Below are positions 6-52,638 of a stretch of DNA of 64,000 nucleotides, piece after piece. The notes under the pieces are model-generated. The model was not told the DNA's origin and searched no databases. It was given only the letters and a program-made list of their open reading frames with translations. Both the position numbers and the translations under genes were made by a program. Origin of the DNA: an uncultured Thermoproteaceae archaeon (GTDB lineage Archaea > Thermoproteota > Thermoprotei > Thermoproteales > Thermocladiaceae); NCBI GenBank assembly GCA_964575955.1, contig CAZNTG010000006.1, positions 544,001-608,000 of the forward strand, written 5' to 3'. Within the stretch, counting starts at the first letter, position 1. Each line of letters opens with the position of its first letter.

Positions 6-878
6 ATGAAGAAGATAGCTATATATGGCAAGGGTGGTATTGGTAAATCTACAATATCTACAAACATTGCAGCTGCACTCGCAGAAATGGGTCTCAAGGT
101 GATGGTTGTAGGATGCGATCCTAAGACTGACTGCACCAGAAATCTCCATGGTGGTAAGATGATTAAACCACTACTTGAATATATGAGAGAGCTTGGTCTT
201 TCTGAAGTTGATGTTTCAGAAATTATCACAGGTAAACAGATAACTCTAGAAGGATTGATTGAGAATAATGTTATTGTTAGAGGTTATAGAGATGTTATAT
301 GTATAGAGGTTGGAGGCCCTGAACCAGGAATTGGATGTGCAGGTCGTGGAATAATACTTGGAATAGAAACATTGCAAAAAGTTGGAATATTCAACTACTT
401 CAAACCTGACATAACAATATTTGACGTTCCCGGAGATATTGTATGTGGAGGTCTTGCGATGCCATTAAGAAGAGGATTTGCAGATCAGGTTTACATAGTT
501 ACAAGTGCTGAATATCTACCACTACACGCAGCTAACAATCTACTCAAAGCTATTAAGAGATTTGCAAATAGAGGAGGTTCAAAACTTGGAGGTATAATAT
601 ACAATGCTCGTGGACATATTGATAGACCTGAAATTGTAGAAAAATTTGCAGAAATTACAGGAACATCAGTAATATATAAGATACCAAAACTTCCAGAAAT
701 TGTAGAGGCTGAAAGTAAGGCTAAGACAGTTATAGAGTATGCACCTGAAAGTTATGCAGCTAAAATTTTCAGAGAGCTAGCATATAAAATAGTGAACAAC
801 AATAGACAAGATATTCCAAGACCATTAAAAAGTGAGGAACTTCATAAACTATATGTACAATATGTTGAACAACTATGA
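6..878 (+). CDS. nifH: NifH-like nitrogenase iron protein (ATP-dependent reductase, group IV/Nfl-like)
   Basis: P-loop YGKGGIGKST, CDPKTD, GGPEPGIGCAGRG (Cys97 equivalent), DVPGDIVCGGLAMP (Cys132 equivalent); first gene of an overlapping three-gene operon. Confidence 0.95.
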   Translation: MKKIAIYGKGGIGKSTISTNIAAALAEMGLKVMVVGCDPKTDCTRNLHGGKMIKPLLEYMRELGLSEVDVSEIITGKQITLEGLIENNVIVRGYRDVICIEVGGPEPGIGCAGRGIILGIETLQKVGIFNYFKPDITIFDVPGDIVCGGLAMPLRRGFADQVYIVTSAEYLPLHAANNLLKAIKRFANRGGSKLGGIIYNARGHIDRPEIVEKFAEITGTSVIYKIPKLPEIVEAESKAKTVIEYAPESYAAKIFRELAYKIVNNNRQDIPRPLKSEELHKLYVQYVEQL

Positions 879-2320
879 AAATCATAAACATACCATACGT
901 ATCAGAAATTGCAAGTAAGATAACAGAAGCATTTCCATTTCACAATGCAGCATGTATAGATGGTAAAATACTTGGAGCATTATGGGCAATATACCAAATC
1001 CGTAATGTTTTACCTATAATTCATGGACCTATAGGATGTAGTTGGCAGAGAAAGTTTGCATTAATGGGTTCAGAAATACATTATTGGACTCCATGTACTG
1101 CATGGTCAGAAACTGAAGTTGTTTATGGTGGTGAGGAGAAACTTTACAAAGCTATAGTTGAAGCTTATGAAAAATTTAAACCAAAGATGATAGTTGTATT
1201 GACTACATGTGCATCAGACATGGTTGGTGATGATGTTGAATATGTTGTAGATAGAGCTAGAAAAGTTGTAAAATGTCCAATAGTATACTCAACAGGAGAT
1301 AAAGTTGGAAAAACTAGACAAGTAGGTTCACAAGACGTTCTATATAGCATAGTTGAACAATACGTAGTACCAAACTGTGAAAATGTAGAAATTGAAGATG
1401 GTACAGTGAACTTGATGACTATAGGTGGTGAGTATAGTAGAAGTATTGTTACAGAGCTAGAGGGAGTTTTAAAAGCTGCTGGATTGAGAGTAAACAAGAT
1501 ATATTTCGAAGATAGAGAAGTTGAAGAATTGTTAGAACTTGCTAAAGTTAGGGTTAACGTTGTACCATACTACCAAGTATGGGCTAGATATCTATCAGAT
1601 GTTAAAGGAGTTAGAGATTTTGTATTGATAAACTTTGAAGAGTACGATCTCGAAAAAGCATATCCATTAGGTTATGAAGCAGCAATAAATAAGATATTTG
1701 AAATATGTAAATTAGCTAATGTAGAACCTGACGAGAAATCTCTAGAAAGATTTTATAAACCAATGTTAGATAGATTTGAGAAAATTAAGCGTAGAGTTAG
1801 TGGATTGAAAGTATGTATTGAAAATGATTGGGGTACATGTATGTTATTTGCACTTAAACTTGGATTAAAGATTGAAGCATTAGTATTTTGGACAGAGCAG
1901 TATAGAGGTCATGGATATAGTGAATCTAGTATAAAAATGATGATTGATGGATATGTACAATACTTGAGACAGTATGGTCAAGATCCTGAAGTTATAGTAG
2001 ATGAGAAATTTGAAAATGTTATAGATAAAATTAAGAGGAGAAATATTGATCTAGTAATTACAGGATGGTGGAGCAAACCATTTAAATATCATAAAAATGG
2101 TGTAGTTGCAATATCTTCAAGAAATCTAAAACTATTCTTTGAATTTGGCCTAACACCACTCATAAATGCTGGAGAAGTTTTAATAAAGAAGATAGAGAAA
2201 GGAATACCAACAAATCCTGTAGTAGATATTGAAATTAATGAGAAACTTCCATATCTATCAAAAAGATGGGGTGAGCTAACACTACTATTTCACTTGAATA
2301 GATATGAAAAACCTGAGTGA
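875..2320 (+). CDS. Nitrogenase component-1-like oxidoreductase, alpha (NifD/E-like) subunit
   Basis: AAC, IHGPIGC, EVVYGGEEKL, LTTCASDMVGDD motifs; ATGA overlap with nifH stop. Confidence 0.9.
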   Translation: MKIINIPYVSEIASKITEAFPFHNAACIDGKILGALWAIYQIRNVLPIIHGPIGCSWQRKFALMGSEIHYWTPCTAWSETEVVYGGEEKLYKAIVEAYEKFKPKMIVVLTTCASDMVGDDVEYVVDRARKVVKCPIVYSTGDKVGKTRQVGSQDVLYSIVEQYVVPNCENVEIEDGTVNLMTIGGEYSRSIVTELEGVLKAAGLRVNKIYFEDREVEELLELAKVRVNVVPYYQVWARYLSDVKGVRDFVLINFEEYDLEKAYPLGYEAAINKIFEICKLANVEPDEKSLERFYKPMLDRFEKIKRRVSGLKVCIENDWGTCMLFALKLGLKIEALVFWTEQYRGHGYSESSIKMMIDGYVQYLRQYGQDPEVIVDEKFENVIDKIKRRNIDLVITGWWSKPFKYHKNGVVAISSRNLKLFFEFGLTPLINAGEVLIKKIEKGIPTNPVVDIEINEKLPYLSKRWGELTLLFHLNRYEKPE

Positions 2321-3638
2321 GAATATGAATCTTATAGATCCAGTTCATGATTGTAGACTTGTTGGTGTTGTTCGTGCTGTGACTGGTATTCATGATTGTG
2401 CATTGATAATTCATGGAAGACCTGGATGCCATAGCGGACCTCTAGGACTTCAATCACAAACTTCAAGTCAAAGATATGTAAATGTTGTATATAGTGGACT
2501 TAGAAGTGAAGAGATGGTTACAGGAGGTGAAAAGAGGTTAAAGTTAGCTATTGAAAATGTGTATAAAGTTATGAAACCCAAACTCATAGTTGTTGCATCA
2601 GCATCTGCTGCAGGTATTATGGGTGATGATGTTGATGGAGTTATAGGCGAAATATCTAGTAGTGTAAAATGTAGAATAGTTCACATATCTGCATGTGGAT
2701 ATTCAGGTCCTGAATGGACGGGATATGAAGATGCGCTAGTGAAAATAGTTGAAACAGTTTTGGAAGAGTATAAATCTAGACAAAGTTTTGAGAAGACTAA
2801 GAATAGAATATCAATAGTCGGCTTCCATCCTGATGAACCATTCTGGAGAGGTGATCTACAGGAACTTATAAATATACTTAAAGAAATACTCAATGTAGAT
2901 ATTAGTGTAGTCTTAAATTGGTGTTCTATAGAAGAAATATCAAATATAGTAAATAGCGATCTTGTAGTAGTTCTTGGTGGTGATGGTTTGAGTGTTGCAG
3001 ATTATTTAAAGAAAAATTTCAACATAGAATACATAGTAACACCATACCCAATAGGAATTAAGAATACTATAGACATGATATATAGTATAAGCTCTAAACT
3101 AGGTATTGATATTAATACAAAGAAGTTAGAAGCTTATGAAAAATATGTTAGAGACATTATAGAAGATTTTCAAACATATGTTGAAGGTATTTACGGAAAT
3201 GTTAGGTGTGTCATAGTTGGTGAAAGCTCTAGAGCATTTAGTTTAGCAAATTTCTTACTAAATGAGTTAGATTTCGATATTGAATATATCGGTATTAGAA
3301 GTAGAAACTATGTAACAGATAGTGAATTGTTAAAATGGAAGAATTCAGAAATTCTAAATGATAGATATGAACTTTATAAAAAGATCTTGGAAATATCTCC
3401 AGAGGTAGTATATGGTTCAACATTTGAGAGAGATATAGCATTGAGATGTGGATGTGCACTAGTTAGATATTGCTACCCAACTCTAGATAGAGTATACATG
3501 AGTGATAGAACTATAGTTGGATTTAGAGGAGCAATAACATTAATAGAAGAAACTATAAATGAGATGTTAAATATGCAAGAAAAGACAGAACTTGCATATC
3601 TATCAAAGATGAATGATACAAAACTACTTGAGAGATGA
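2304..3638 (+). CDS. Nitrogenase component-1-like oxidoreductase, beta (NifK/N-like) subunit
   Basis: DPVHDCRLVG, IHGRPGC, MVTGGEKRL, IMGDDV, C-terminal YPTLDR...VGFRGA typical of NifK/N-type chains. Confidence 0.9.
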   Translation: MKNLSENMNLIDPVHDCRLVGVVRAVTGIHDCALIIHGRPGCHSGPLGLQSQTSSQRYVNVVYSGLRSEEMVTGGEKRLKLAIENVYKVMKPKLIVVASASAAGIMGDDVDGVIGEISSSVKCRIVHISACGYSGPEWTGYEDALVKIVETVLEEYKSRQSFEKTKNRISIVGFHPDEPFWRGDLQELINILKEILNVDISVVLNWCSIEEISNIVNSDLVVVLGGDGLSVADYLKKNFNIEYIVTPYPIGIKNTIDMIYSISSKLGIDINTKKLEAYEKYVRDIIEDFQTYVEGIYGNVRCVIVGESSRAFSLANFLLNELDFDIEYIGIRSRNYVTDSELLKWKNSEILNDRYELYKKILEISPEVVYGSTFERDIALRCGCALVRYCYPTLDRVYMSDRTIVGFRGAITLIEETINEMLNMQEKTELAYLSKMNDTKLLER

Positions 3639-3684
3639 TGTAAAATCCGGTTCGCTGATATATGACGAAAAGGCCCGTATCTGA
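3635..3684 (+). ncRNA. box C/D sRNA
   Basis: ATGATGT (C, overlaps the stop codon of the beta gene), guide, CTGA (D'), ATGACGA (C'), 12-nt guide, CTGA (D). Confidence 0.8.
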
Positions 3685-4026
3685 CTAAAATTCTACCTCT
3701 ATACTCACTAATGTATATAGTCCAAATCTTATGAGTGTGTTTTTCATCAATGTTATCTCACTAATTCTGTAGGGTATGCCATTTTCTATTATGTATGTAC
3801 CATTTTTACTTCCAAGATCTTTCAATACTATGTTACTACCTTCCTGAAATATAGATGCGTGTTTTCTAGATACTGATGGGTCTGGTATTATTATTGTATT
3901 TTCTGGACTTCTACCTATAGTTATTTCTCTAAATGATTGTATATGTATATAGAGTTCGTATCCACATAGTTTTTGTAGGGTTGTTTCTATAAACTTAATT
4001 TTGAGTAGTGGTTTTGGTATATGCAT
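3685..4026 (-). CDS. FHA-domain protein
   Basis: ITIGR...D.SVSRKHA...LKDLGSKNGTY FHA signature. Confidence 0.9.
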   Translation of the reverse strand: MHIPKPLLKIKFIETTLQKLCGYELYIHIQSFREITIGRSPENTIIIPDPSVSRKHASIFQEGSNIVLKDLGSKNGTYIIENGIPYRISEITLMKNTLIRFGLYTLVSIEVEF

Positions 4027-4043
4027 ACTTAATCTTGATTATT

Positions 4044-6059
4044 CTATGTTGGTGTTGTTATTTGTCTTCTACGTCTTCTAGCTCTTGCTATAGCTATGGC
4101 TATTATTGCTATTATTGCAAATATTACACATATTATCTCAGGTAGGTGTTTATACATTATTGTTGTCATTGTTTCACCAATCTTTATATTTAGAGTTATC
4201 GATTTTACTAGTGTTGGTATGCTGTTAAGTCCATAGATTATGAATGGTTTTGGTGAGTATAATAACATCAATGTTGCATGATATATACCTACAGGTGTTG
4301 AACTATCTATCTCTAACAGATATGTCAATACTATAGTATCTCCTGGTCTTACCTCTCCAACATATATTTGATTTGCTGTCATTGCAGCTAGTGGATTGTT
4401 TTGTGGTACATGAAATGTCAATACTTTAGGTATTGATAATATTGCTTTAACATTTTCAAGAGTTGGCCCTCTAACATACTTTAGATATATTCTAAGTATT
4501 GCTCTACTAGATCCAGGGTAAAATCCTATCTCTTCAATTTTAACAACCTTGAACTCCGGTTTTGGAATTACTTTGAAAGTTACATAATAATCTTCATCAA
4601 CATCACAGTAATGTACGTTAATCTTCAAAATATATGTTCTAGGTGTAACATTATCAGGTACATTAAACATGAACTGTATTGGTATTGGCTTTCCAGGTGG
4701 TACTGCTGGTAATGTTATACTAGTCATATTTGGTGTATATGTTGAAAATTCTCTAGGCAATACTAGTCTAATAGTTACATTTTTTGCAATAACACTTCCA
4801 ACATTTACAATACTTACATTAAGTCTAATACCATTCATTCCGGGTGTTGCTATTGGTGGCATTGGTATTGCATATGCTACTCTAATCTTTGGTGAATATA
4901 TTACAATCTTCACAGTATGGACTTCTCTAACATGATCATACATGAATATAACCTGTATTGGATACTTACCTCCAGATATGTTCTGCAATGTCGATACTAT
5001 AAACGTTACCGGTATCTCTCTACCAGCAGTTACAACACCAATATTCTTACATAGAAGACCTGAACCTTTAAGTGGCTTTTCAAGTCTTATACATACGGTT
5101 AAGTTATCTATAGCTGATGTTGGTATAAACATTACTGTTAGAGGAATTTTACTATATCCAGGACCTACAGAAAATACCTTTCCTGGAAATCCCCAATATG
5201 CTGTGACAGCACTAAACTTAACCTCAGGAATACATAATCTAAATGATGTATTTAAAGTCCATGTAACACCAATACCATACTTAACAAATAGTTTTTCAGA
5301 ATAACAACCACCAGTAACATTATTGTAGAGATTTACTAGGTATGTTAATGTTATTGGTTTTCCTGGAGGTAATGCAGGTAGTGTAATGTTTAGATATTTA
5401 ACAATCTTCCCATTCTTAGTTGCATAGATTGGATATGATAATTTTAGTTGTATTGTCACATTTTCTAGAATTGATGTACCACTATTCATAACTATGATTG
5501 TTAATGGTATATTCTTCATTCCCGGTCCAACAATTTGATAGTTTTTATATCCGAGATATGCACCTAGAACCTGTATTCCTGAAGTTCCTATTATTGGAAG
5601 CTTTTGTGTATATTCTAAATGTTCATGTGTACAGTATTGACCTCTTTGAGTAACTATGCATATGTAGTAGTATGTTTCAATTTTGAAATCTTTAAATCCT
5701 GTAGATACTGTTGGAGGAATTCTCAAGTAGAATATACATGTACTATTCATTCCTGGAGCCATATATGGTATTTTACATATCTGTACACCACTAAACCACT
5801 CAATATTATCTGGAAGTTCTAACCATACTCTAACATCTTTGAAATAGAATTTTACACCTGATATGTTAGGTATGACTATTCCTACCTTGAGAATTGCAAG
5901 ACTTGTTCCTGGGCTTGGAACTTTAGGTTCTAGCCAATATGCGTAGACTATTGGAGTTATCTCACTCGTACTAACTGTCTGACAATGTACAACTTCAAGC
6001 CCTACCACTGATATTATCAGTGTAAGTGTTATAAGCAATATCTTGACTACTCTACTCAT
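4044..6059 (-). CDS. S-layer-like/COG1361 surface protein with repeated Ig-like (CARDB/NEW3-type) modules
   Basis: N-terminal signal peptide, repeated N.G...A.NV...LPPG modules, C-terminal TM helix followed by poly-Arg. Confidence 0.75.
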   Translation of the reverse strand: MSRVVKILLITLTLIISVVGLEVVHCQTVSTSEITPIVYAYWLEPKVPSPGTSLAILKVGIVIPNISGVKFYFKDVRVWLELPDNIEWFSGVQICKIPYMAPGMNSTCIFYLRIPPTVSTGFKDFKIETYYYICIVTQRGQYCTHEHLEYTQKLPIIGTSGIQVLGAYLGYKNYQIVGPGMKNIPLTIIVMNSGTSILENVTIQLKLSYPIYATKNGKIVKYLNITLPALPPGKPITLTYLVNLYNNVTGGCYSEKLFVKYGIGVTWTLNTSFRLCIPEVKFSAVTAYWGFPGKVFSVGPGYSKIPLTVMFIPTSAIDNLTVCIRLEKPLKGSGLLCKNIGVVTAGREIPVTFIVSTLQNISGGKYPIQVIFMYDHVREVHTVKIVIYSPKIRVAYAIPMPPIATPGMNGIRLNVSIVNVGSVIAKNVTIRLVLPREFSTYTPNMTSITLPAVPPGKPIPIQFMFNVPDNVTPRTYILKINVHYCDVDEDYYVTFKVIPKPEFKVVKIEEIGFYPGSSRAILRIYLKYVRGPTLENVKAILSIPKVLTFHVPQNNPLAAMTANQIYVGEVRPGDTIVLTYLLEIDSSTPVGIYHATLMLLYSPKPFIIYGLNSIPTLVKSITLNIKIGETMTTIMYKHLPEIICVIFAIIAIIAIAIARARRRRRQITTPT

Positions 6060-8130: not shown

Positions 8131-8646
8131 TTGATATCTATGACTTATGAAGAGTTGAAGTATAGGATATGTAGAGAGTGTGGTGCTAGATGTTGTAAAA
8201 GATTTGATTACAAAAATTGGTTTGTAACACTATCATTGAGAGATATAGTTAGAATATCTGAAGGATTAGGTAAGGATTTAGAATATGTATTAAATAACTA
8301 TATAGAAATAATAAGAATCGGTAGTAGCATAATCTTAACATTGAAAGTTATTAATAGAGTATGCATATTTCTGAGAGAAGATAGATGTACAATTCAGAAG
8401 TTTAAACCAATAGCGTGTAGAGTATATCCAGTATACATACCTGGAATGTACATAGATCCACAATGTCCACTATCGAAATATCCAGAGCTACTCAAAGATG
8501 AAGAAATGTACGTATATCAATACGTTAAAGAACATTTAGAAACTCAGAAAATATTAGAAGAATATTCACCAAAAAGTATTAGAGATATAGCATGGATAAT
8601 TAGAGAAACCCTTAAAGACCTAGATAAAAACATAGAAACTAGCTAG
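8131..8646 (+). CDS. YkgJ/FliB-family cysteine-cluster protein
   Basis: CRECGARCC...CIFL...CTIQ..KPIACRVYP. Confidence 0.85.
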   Translation: MISMTYEELKYRICRECGARCCKRFDYKNWFVTLSLRDIVRISEGLGKDLEYVLNNYIEIIRIGSSIILTLKVINRVCIFLREDRCTIQKFKPIACRVYPVYIPGMYIDPQCPLSKYPELLKDEEMYVYQYVKEHLETQKILEEYSPKSIRDIAWIIRETLKDLDKNIETS

Positions 8647-8735
8647 CCGGGGTGGCCGAGCCAGGCCCAAGGCGCGGGACTGGAGATCCCGTCCCCGTAC
8701 AGGGGGCGTGGGTTCAAATCCCACCCCCGGCGCCA
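8646..8735 (+). tRNA. tRNA-Ser(GGA), CCA encoded
   Basis: GCCGGGG/CCCCGGC acceptor stem, CGGGA-CTGGAGA-TCCCG anticodon arm, long variable arm, GGTTCAAATCC T-arm. Confidence 0.97.
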
Positions 8736-49677: not shown

Positions 49678-49756
49678 GCCGCCGTAGCTCAGCCTGGGTG
49701 AGAGCGCCCGGCTCATAACCGGGAGGTCCCGGGTTCAAATCCCGGCGGCGGCACCA
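49678..49756 (+). tRNA. tRNA-Met(CAT), elongator type, CCA encoded
   Basis: GCCGCCG/CGGCGGC acceptor stem, CCCGG-CTCATAA-CCGGG anticodon arm, GGTTCAAATCC. Confidence 0.95.
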
Positions 49757-52542: not shown

Positions 52543-52638
52543 GGGCCCGTAGCTCAGCCTGGTTAGAGCGGCGGGCTTTTAACCCGTGTGGGGGAGGAGA
52601 CCCGTAGGTCCCGGGTTCAAATCCCGGCGGGCCCGCCA
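52543..52638 (+). tRNA. tRNA-Lys(TTT) with an 18-nt intron at 37/38 (52582-52599), CCA encoded
   Basis: GGGCCCG/CGGGCCC acceptor stem; CTTTTA|ACCCGTGTGGGGGAGGAG|ACCCGT forms a BHB motif. Confidence 0.93.

Follow-up and report, generated by a model that had tools for sequence, protein, structure and literature searches.

A three-gene nitrogenase-like system in a Thermoproteales archaeon: a putative iron-sulfur-only reductase of a family shared with methane-cycling archaea

The DNA described here, referred to as the window, is a stretch of 64,000 nucleotides from an uncultured Thermoproteaceae archaeon (assembly GCA_964575955.1, contig CAZNTG010000006.1), corresponding to C6:544001-608000 within a contig of 621,363 bases. 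The first genes of the window, designated H, D and K (together HDK), encode a nitrogenase-like (Nfl) system composed of an Fe protein and two component-1 chains:

6..878, + strand: H, NifH-like Fe protein (component 2); 290 residues, 300.8 bits on PF00142 (Fer4_NifH)
875..2320, + strand: D, alpha-type component-1 chain; 481 residues, 153.4 bits on PF00148 (Oxidored_nitro)
2304..3638, + strand: K, beta-type component-1 chain; 444 residues (437 from 2325), 241.8 bits on PF00148

A preliminary description, made from the letters of the window, had proposed a complete HDK operon, and the three open reading frames, all on one strand, and their Pfam scores (the PF00148 cut-off is 28.6 bits) bear this out. 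The three genes had also been called overlapping. This holds for H and D, which share 4 nt (ATGA, with the D start inside the H stop); D and K share 17 nt when the first K ATG is used, but lie 4 nt apart if K begins at the ATG at 2325.

Both the nucleotide-binding and the cluster-binding portions of H are intact. Its P-loop reads GKGGIGKST, and in an alignment with MarH and NifH, C111 and C147 fall on the cluster cysteines, in agreement with the earlier assignment of an Fe protein with both [4Fe-4S] cysteines. The same alignment shows the CAGRG and VCGG motifs as well as an insertion of 16-17 residues in H relative to MarH and NifH. Among NCBIfam models, H passes NF009701, "nitrogenase reductase-like protein" (358.4 bits, cut-off 350), and falls below the cut-offs for nifH (348.6 vs 394), CfbC (315 vs 402), BchX and BchL. 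Among solved structures, H is closest to MarH (9fmg_D, 245.7 bits), with NifH next. H is the single strong NifH-type gene in the genome.

Ligand positions in D were assigned by HMMER alignment to two nitrogenase alpha chains, and conservation was taken from 31 family members. C55 (HGPIGC), C74 (PCT) and C112 (TTC) fall on the three alpha-chain P-cluster positions, and each is Cys in 31/31 members. Thus, HGPIGC and TTC were correctly recognized from the letters, but the third ligand is C74 and not C27 of the "AAC" motif, which is Cys in just 6/31. The position of the iron-molybdenum cofactor (FeMo-co) ligand Cys275 had been thought to be substituted in D, and it is: Y233 ("PYY") aligns to the Cys of the nitrogenase alpha "VVHC" motif, and this position is occupied by Pro, Thr, Arg, Tyr or Lys, with Cys in 0/31 members. 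Nor is a His442-like motif present, as had also been noted, since the C-terminal half of D, which includes the His442 or MarD-His429 region, contains no Cys or His conserved across the 31 members. Beyond C55, C74 and C112, the Cys and His residues conserved in at least 80% of members are H23, H50 and C134. The last of these (nt 1274-1276) is Cys in 28/31 and lies outside the known nitrogenase ligand positions.

K retains two of the three beta-chain ligands, as had been read from the sequence: C17 and C42 correspond in the alignment to ligands one and two of AnfK, VnfK and MarK, and S101 to the third (the A. vinelandii beta chain has ligands at 70 and 153). Conservation was judged from 35 sequences (28 non-Thermoproteota and seven from the genus of the host). 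C17 is kept in 34/35 and C42 in 35/35, whereas the third site is Cys in 27/28 of the non-Thermoproteota sequences and in 1/7 of those from the genus. Together, D and K of the window hold five of six P-cluster-type cysteines and the outside relatives six; a ligand for a second cluster is found in neither. The best solved relatives of K are MarK (9d9u_C/9fmg, 86.8 bits), AnfK and VnfK; 9FMG is described as a structure of the Mar complex (PMC12552129).

Neither component-1 chain reaches any NCBIfam cut-off. The top model for D is NifE, at 80.9 bits vs 505 and over residues 34-230 only; nifD yields 67 vs 654, CfbD 64 vs 268 and BchN 39 vs 420. For K the top model is BchB (116.6 vs 490), and nifK yields 83 vs 427. 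Foldseek recognizes the component-1 fold in an AlphaFold2 model of D (mean pLDDT 80.2), which matches MarD, NifD/K and BchB at TM 0.5-0.57 with 13-20% identity. Because all of these match within the same TM range, fold comparison does not discriminate between families and was set aside as a classifier. By their defining features, H, D and K form a member of the nitrogenase superfamily.

The absence of N2 fixation and of F430 synthesis, both proposed earlier, is supported by the ligands, the family scores and a search of the genome. NifB (TIGR01290) has no match in the host genome or in any of the seven genomes of the genus (47-95% complete), and with H, D and K every equivalog model for Nif, Vnf or Anf scores far below its cut-off. 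Since these results accompany the lack of Cys275 and His442 equivalents, N2 fixation is not expected. The host genome contains exactly two PF00148 genes, D and K, and therefore has no NifEN or CfbD gene. Synthesis of F430 is likewise not expected because the component-1 chains are two paralogs, CfbD and CfbC are not matched above cut-off, and MCR alpha has no match in the host genome. The DPOR/COR models (BchN/B/Y/Z, BchL/X) likewise score far below their cut-offs with H, D and K. MAR and Nfa are described as having a D chain with a Cys270/Cys257 cluster ligand, all six P-cluster cysteines and a partner of the NifB type (PMC13474568, PMC12552129), and this combination is not found in the window set. 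Judged from its sequence, then, HDK is neither a nitrogenase nor CfbCD, DPOR/COR, MAR or Nfa.

The distribution of these genes in Thermoproteales is narrow, as had been anticipated. Of 61 genomes related to the host at the level of genus, family or order, seven match PF00148 above cut-off, all belonging to one genus (the host genome, G000, and six others); the other 54 never exceed the cut-off, and five of them give weak sub-threshold matches. Within the genus, component-1 genes are found as open frames in 7/7 genomes, at least three genomes contain two D/K sets, and up to three Nfl sets are seen. Other members of the genus keep orthologues of 48-80% identity in syntenic positions. Given this conservation (presence in 7/7 genomes, retained ligands and synteny), HDK is presumably in use and kept under selection.

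Outside the order, relatives are found by several routes. A word-indexed search of D against 5.8 billion proteins returns 33 near-full-length relatives of at least 226 bits, with the next match at 85 bits; beyond this drop, the matches are NifE-like. An exhaustive D profile search of 1.84 billion representatives gives 103 matches at E<=1e-30, with a graded fall-off. The ESM Atlas yields the same family assignment, the nearest cluster having 72 members that are most commonly Methanobacteriota. In a scan of species-representative genomes, 51 loci are found. Eight come from metagenome-assembled genomes (MAGs) labelled Thermoproteota, Thermoproteales or Thermoproteaceae; the other 43 carry the labels ANME-1, Methanophagales, Methanothrix/Methanotrichaceae, "Methanosarcinales", "Methanobacteriota", Bathyarchaeia or Halobacteria. 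The closest outside relatives have 54-57% identity in H, 35-37.5% in K and 31-34% in D, and they occur together in the same gene clusters. NCBIfam does not supply a name for this group: among 20 representatives of the nearest relatives, only P0245 passed any cut-off (as N2-ase-Ialpha subfamily), so the neighbours are unnamed Nfl proteins.

Trees place the window genes within this family. With FastTree, 27 of 135 representatives group together as the family, at a support of 100 and apart from a 76-row clade that contains the sequences named NifE. With IQ-TREE (quick, LG+C20, 68 rows), copy 1 of the genus, which is the window type, and copy 2 form one clade (SH-aLRT 100). This clade is sister (98) to 32 rows labelled ANME-1, Methanophagales, Methanothrix or Bathyarchaeia, and both nest in a family of 49 rows (98). 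One genome of the genus, G005, contains a third Nfl type (locus L007, order H-K-D) that falls in a different subclade. The K tree is concordant, with six rows of the genus in one clade at 100 and L007 elsewhere. The L007 set (positions 510-4157) is 29-31% identical to D and K of the window.

The trees, the identities and the D pattern of three invariant cysteines without a Cys275 equivalent thus group D, K and H of the window with the clusters of ANME-1 and Methanothrix. By these sequence comparisons, HDK is part of a radiation of uncharacterised archaeal Nfl systems that has its centre in ANME-1/Methanophagales and Methanothrix, and for which "archaeal importer-linked Nfl radiation" serves as a working name and not as that of a published family. 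Since component-1 genes are confined to one genus among the 61 genomes, horizontal acquisition is likely. The most likely course is that the ancestor of the genus acquired HDK from a methane-cycling archaeon of the ANME-1/Methanothrix kind and that the set was then duplicated; a separate origin for the G005-type set would be part of the simplest history. Such a history fits a remark published in 2025 that Nif-family members in TACK and Asgard archaea are very scattered and that each is a clear transfer from Euryarchaeota (PMC12176620).

Hints about the substrate come first from the gene neighbourhoods of the relatives. Among the 43 outside loci (26 of which are at least 8 kb long), the gene order is D-K-H, frequently in tandem sets. 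Genes for components of chelate importers, Peripla_BP_2 (up to nine copies) or FecCD, are present at 27/43, or at 20/26 of the longer loci. A class-I S-adenosylmethionine (SAM) methyltransferase of ~290 residues lies inside the unit at 15/43. An O-methyltransferase of the Methyltransf_2 family is found at 6/43, its best curated match being BchU (57.9 bits, far below cut-off); a PNPOx-like protein and a "Gate" membrane protein are each found at 6/43, and CobN (1233 residues) at 3/43, of the Methanothrix type. The Nfl-linked binding proteins most resemble catecholate-siderophore binders (4mo9, 211 bits; YiuA, 6b2x; CeuE) and match BtuF and haem binders weakly. That the closest solved proteins are of the siderophore type neither proves nor excludes a tetrapyrrole substrate.

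Four outside loci labelled ANME-1 or Methanophagales (L026, L039, L047 and L053) have two to three tandem Nfl sets, with D-K-H followed by methyltransferase-K-H-D. Here the tandem arrays are interleaved with class-I SAM methyltransferase genes and with small genes of the "23S rRNA intervening sequence protein" family.

Sets of the genus other than that of the window show similar associations. At one copy-2 locus (L017), genes for an ABC ATPase, FecCD and an 818-residue double binding protein precede D and K, and a similar methyltransferase lies 6 kb on; at another (L046), a binding protein gene is followed by D. In three MAGs (L057, L058 and L063), a CbiF-like methylase gene is located three to five genes before copy-2 D, and a CbiE-like tetrapyrrole methylase gene lies divergently beside the G005 set. 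A further genome of the genus (L015:4775-9759) contains a copy-1 D-K pair without an adjacent H. This pair is preceded by a gene of the Prismane/CO-dehydrogenase family, energy-converting hydrogenase-type subunits, a ferredoxin and a nitroreductase-family gene, which are a possible low-potential electron source.

The best explanation for these observations, held with slightly better than even confidence, is that HDK is a two-component, ATP-dependent reductase with Fe-S clusters only, similar to DPOR and CfbCD, that was acquired from methane-cycling archaea. The family scores and the ligand pattern support the part of this reading that had been proposed before, an ATP-driven reductase. By analogy with DPOR, COR and CfbCD, a dimer of H would hold a [4Fe-4S] cluster on C111/C147, bind ATP, dock on D2K2 and pass low-potential electrons singly. 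The acceptor would be a cluster that bridges D and K, bound by C55, C74 and C112 of D and by C17 and C42 of K, with S101 of K at the sixth site. From this cluster, electrons would move straight to a substrate in a D/K cavity; neither FeMo-co nor an L-cluster takes part in the proposed route. The type of the bridging cluster, [4Fe-4S] or P-like, and the heterotetramer itself are inferences, as is the substrate.

For the substrate, a tetrapyrrole-type macrocycle is the tentative first choice, with a probability somewhat short of even. This choice rests on the precedents, on CobN and on the corrin-type and BchU-like methylases. As a 2026 review describes them, all of the characterised Nfl enzymes that lack an L- or M-cluster reduce tetrapyrroles, the predicted isethionate reductase (ISR) apart (PMC13474568). 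The siderophore-type binding proteins suggest another imported metal chelate, which is the second choice and rather unlikely; the remaining probability is shared among small molecules, a role as a scaffold and a lack of function.

Several points weigh against this explanation. The analogy with DPOR may be incomplete, since five to six cysteines exceed those of the known Fe-S-only Nfl systems, which are described as having no more than four ligands; in Group VI, no more than four of the P-type cysteines are kept (PMC13474568). By the same account, an L- or M-type cluster is also present in the systems with six cysteines (Nif, Mar and, by prediction, Nfa). Within the genus, the third ligand of K varies (Ser, Thr, Ala or Cys). 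The siderophore-type likeness of the binding proteins favours a chelate other than a tetrapyrrole. No neighbour of the window's own HDK hints at a substrate, and the presence of CobN and FecCD in the host genome is uninformative, because both are common in relatives that lack Nfl (see below). No RNA run was found to contain the stretch. As to the history, the trees are "quick" or FastTree trees with long branches flagged, and the taxon labels of the MAGs may be wrong, since they depend on binning.

An improbable alternative to the tetrapyrrole-type reductase is a reductase or lyase of a small molecule that would serve to obtain sulfur or some other nutrient, cleaving a C-S or similar bond in the manner of methylthio-alkane reductase or isethionate reductase. 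MarK and MarH are indeed the best-scoring solved relatives of K and H, ISR is predicted to use a simple [4Fe-4S] cluster (PMC13474568), and a gene for ATP sulfurylase lies 12 kb upstream of HDK. However, D lacks the cluster ligand of MarD and NfaD (the Cys275 equivalent), a NifB/MarB-type gene is unmatched in 7/7 genomes of the genus, and identity to the Mar chains is just 18-19% in the fold search. The surroundings differ as well: the relatives adjoin genes for chelate importers and not sulfonate or sulfur genes, and HDK has no adjacent gene for cysteine or methionine synthase, unlike the co-localisation described for Group IV (PMC13753814).

Only a small chance is given to a scaffold or maturase like NifEN, which would assemble or insert a metal centre in connection with metal import. 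Such a role was proposed by Dos Santos et al. in 2012 for Nfl genes beside ABC transporters (PMC3464626); it would agree with the top curated-model and solved-structure matches of D, which are NifE and NifEN, and with relatives that adjoin metal-chelate importers and sometimes CobN. Yet the similarity to NifE is limited to the N-terminal cluster-binding part, residues 34-230, and the position of the NifE L-cluster cysteine is not Cys in D. The lack of a NifB match means that there is no supplier of the precursor, and no target metalloenzyme is linked to the set.

That HDK is what remains of a transferred operon, decaying or already without function, is very improbable. The window set does lack the importer and methyltransferase partners of its relatives, it has lost the third K ligand, and it is the only Nfl set here, while up to three are present elsewhere in the genus. 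Nevertheless, its three frames are open, with translationally coupled overlaps; no other ligand residue is lost, and the ATPase motifs are complete; and the syntenic orthologues at 48-80% identity and a GC content that matches the genome also argue against decay. Least credible of all is that HDK reduces N2 cryptically and at low activity, in the manner proposed for Nfa, through which non-canonical Nfl have been linked to N2 assimilation, since NfaD is described as keeping the Cys275 equivalent together with six P-cluster cysteines and NfaB (PMC13474568), while here that Cys is missing, one P-type Cys is Ser and NifB has no match.

Among known systems, DPOR (BchL/ChlL with BchNB/ChlNB) and COR (BchXYZ) have several features in common with HDK: an H-type ATPase-reductase accompanies two paralogous component-1 chains, the chain of the N/D type carries three cysteines, FeMo-co ligands are lacking and NifB is not needed. 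In DPOR and COR, the substrate is described as binding directly near the bridging cluster (PMC13474568). At the beta70- and beta95-type positions, however, K has its two cysteines, as against one Asp in BchB; the BchB and BchN scores fall far short of their cut-offs, and the host is not a phototroph. CfbCD, which acts on a tetrapyrrole, is archaeal like HDK and Fe-S only, as HDK is predicted to be, and H scores 315 bits on the CfbC model. CfbD, in contrast, is a single homodimeric chain, whereas HDK has two paralogous chains, with no third PF00148 gene. MarHDK (Group IV-C) has the same HDK architecture and largely keeps the P-cluster-type cysteines. It is reported that MarD binds [Fe8S9C] via Cys270 and His429 and needs MarB (PMC12552129); D of the window lacks ligands of the Cys270/His429 type, and no NifB-type match is found in the genus. 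In addition, Mar is bacterial and linked to sulfur genes, whereas the window system is archaeal.

Two groups of Nfl proteins described previously come close. Group VI, from Elusimicrobia, resembles the window set in lacking NifB and the Cys275/His442 ligands and occurs as HDK or HD sets, and a link to tetrapyrroles has been proposed for it from gene context (PMC13474568). By its published description it has at most four of six P-type cysteines, compared with five in the window set and six in 27/28 of the outside relatives, and the window family is archaeal. Groups IV-D, IV-E, IV-F and VI are all described as bacterial (PMC13474568, PMC13753814). In 2012, Nfl/NifEN-like genes beside ABC transporters were noted in methanogens and Firmicutes (PMC3464626). 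Like the window set, these consist of H and two component-1 chains without FeMo-co ligands; unlike it, they have cysteines given as 3+0 and 2+1, where the present family has 3+2 or 3+3, and the available part of that account mentions no Thermoproteota example.

A full-text search of a limited body of literature returned no account of the clade, of its ligand pattern or of Nfl in Thermoproteales, and the published accession lists for Group IV could include members. Thus, the suggestion of an undescribed system stands insofar as no description is found in the literature searched, but the system is shared with ANME-1 and Methanothrix lineages and is not unique to the host. The clade is not categorically new, and it may coincide with one of the named groups IV-D, IV-E, IV-F and VI, which were compared through their published descriptions. 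Five to six P-type cysteines without a ligand for a catalytic cluster nonetheless appear to be unusual in the superfamily. It is conceivable, though doubtful, that these proteins represent a new functional class, in which a P-cluster-type relay feeds an organic or metal-bound substrate with no catalytic metallocluster, captured by a hyperthermophilic and non-methanogenic lineage of Thermoproteales. If so, methane-cycling archaea would process scavenged metal macrocycles or chelates by reduction, with the help of siderophore-type importers, methyltransferases and CobN; ATP-driven reductive demetallation and cofactor salvage are examples of such roles.

Uncharacterised nitrogenase-like systems are counted by the 2026 review among the greatest challenges of the field (PMC13474568). 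A complete HDK set that is conserved across a genus of non-methanogenic TACK archaea offers a clean example, and, on the practical side, biochemical and structural studies could be aimed at a thermostable enzyme of the genus. An archaeal clade with P-type cysteines, no catalytic ligand and, in this genus, no NifB match bears on the evolution of cluster complexity. The gene neighbourhoods of the relatives provide the first hints about the substrate, and the context of importers, methyltransferases and CobN amounts to a testable hypothesis for ANME-1 and Methanothrix, with relevance to the methane cycle.

The genes that surround HDK in the host genome are of other kinds. A purP-like gene for a formate-dependent ligase (DUF1246/DUF1297; 432 bits, below the cut-off of 570) lies 38 bp upstream of H, and an isochorismatase-family gene and an acetyl-CoA synthetase gene are located further upstream. 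Neither a Peripla_BP_2 nor a FecCD gene is present in the 15 kb upstream or the 5 kb downstream of HDK. TTTATAT occurs in the 38-bp spacer, ~25-31 nt ahead of the H start codon. By the usual position of the archaeal TATA box and the rule for leaderless mRNAs, HDK would have its own promoter and a leaderless transcript. Downstream of K lies a convergent FHA-domain gene, and an FHA gene also adjoins K in two other genomes of the genus. The features on this side are:

3685-4026, - strand: FHA-domain protein, 113 residues
4044-6059, - strand: predicted surface protein of 671 residues with an NPCBM_assoc/NEW3 domain and a C-terminal membrane anchor

Elsewhere in the host genome, genes for ALAD, six TP_methylase proteins above cut-off and a small CbiX are present; the host therefore makes tetrapyrroles. 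The genome also contains one full CobN homologue, one split CobN and one FecCD-type importer. CobN is found in 20/61 and FecCD in 58/61 of the related genomes, mostly in genomes without Nfl, and phyletic profiles of the two were discarded as a clue to function. The full-length CobN homologue (1236 residues) is encoded at C3:116761-120471, and the split one by genes for an N-terminal part of 793 residues (C13:16412-18793) and a C-terminal part of 502 residues (C11:5185-6693), both contig-internal. A full plus a split CobN are repeated in several related genomes, and in some the halves are adjacent.

Searches of the host genome by tblastn with copy-2 and G005-type D and K for a second Nfl set or a remnant found the window genes only. 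At C7:40349-41844, a Methyltransf_2-type O-methyltransferase gene, whose product is 30% identical to those of the outside Nfl clusters, lies beside a 141-residue Peripla_BP_2 fragment; this pair may be a remnant of an importer-linked module.

The host genome comprises 1.52 Mb in 15 contigs and is 94.7% complete, and the operon has a GC content of 32-36%, compared with 33.1% genome-wide. The window begins within a long contig, not at a contig start as had been supposed. The concern that the join might be chimeric is likewise removed. The candidate source run yields one contig that covers the purP-like gene through K without differences, and in a second, independent run (X2) near-identical contigs span the boundary of the purP-like gene with H as well as that of H with D. 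Contigs of X2 and of X3 are short and sparse, and no listed X2 record crosses the D/K junction. A MAG locus from another assembly (L049) has the identical six upstream genes, followed by H and D. Because of the bridging contigs and this synteny, a chimeric join is excluded for practical purposes. Two apparent "joints" in run X1 rest on sides of 21 letters and were taken as chance matches.

The host had been called hyperthermophilic, which fits, by indirect evidence. Its 36 tRNA genes have a mean GC content of 70.7% in a genome of 33.1%, and the sole run that contains the full stretch is labelled hydrothermal vent metagenome; both are consistent with a (hyper)thermophilic host, if only indirectly. 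Three tRNA genes lie in the window itself (8646-8735, 49678-49756 and 52543-52638), with GC contents of 69-74% that are typical of thermophiles. Two of the window tRNAs are 90-96 nt long and could contain introns or long variable arms.

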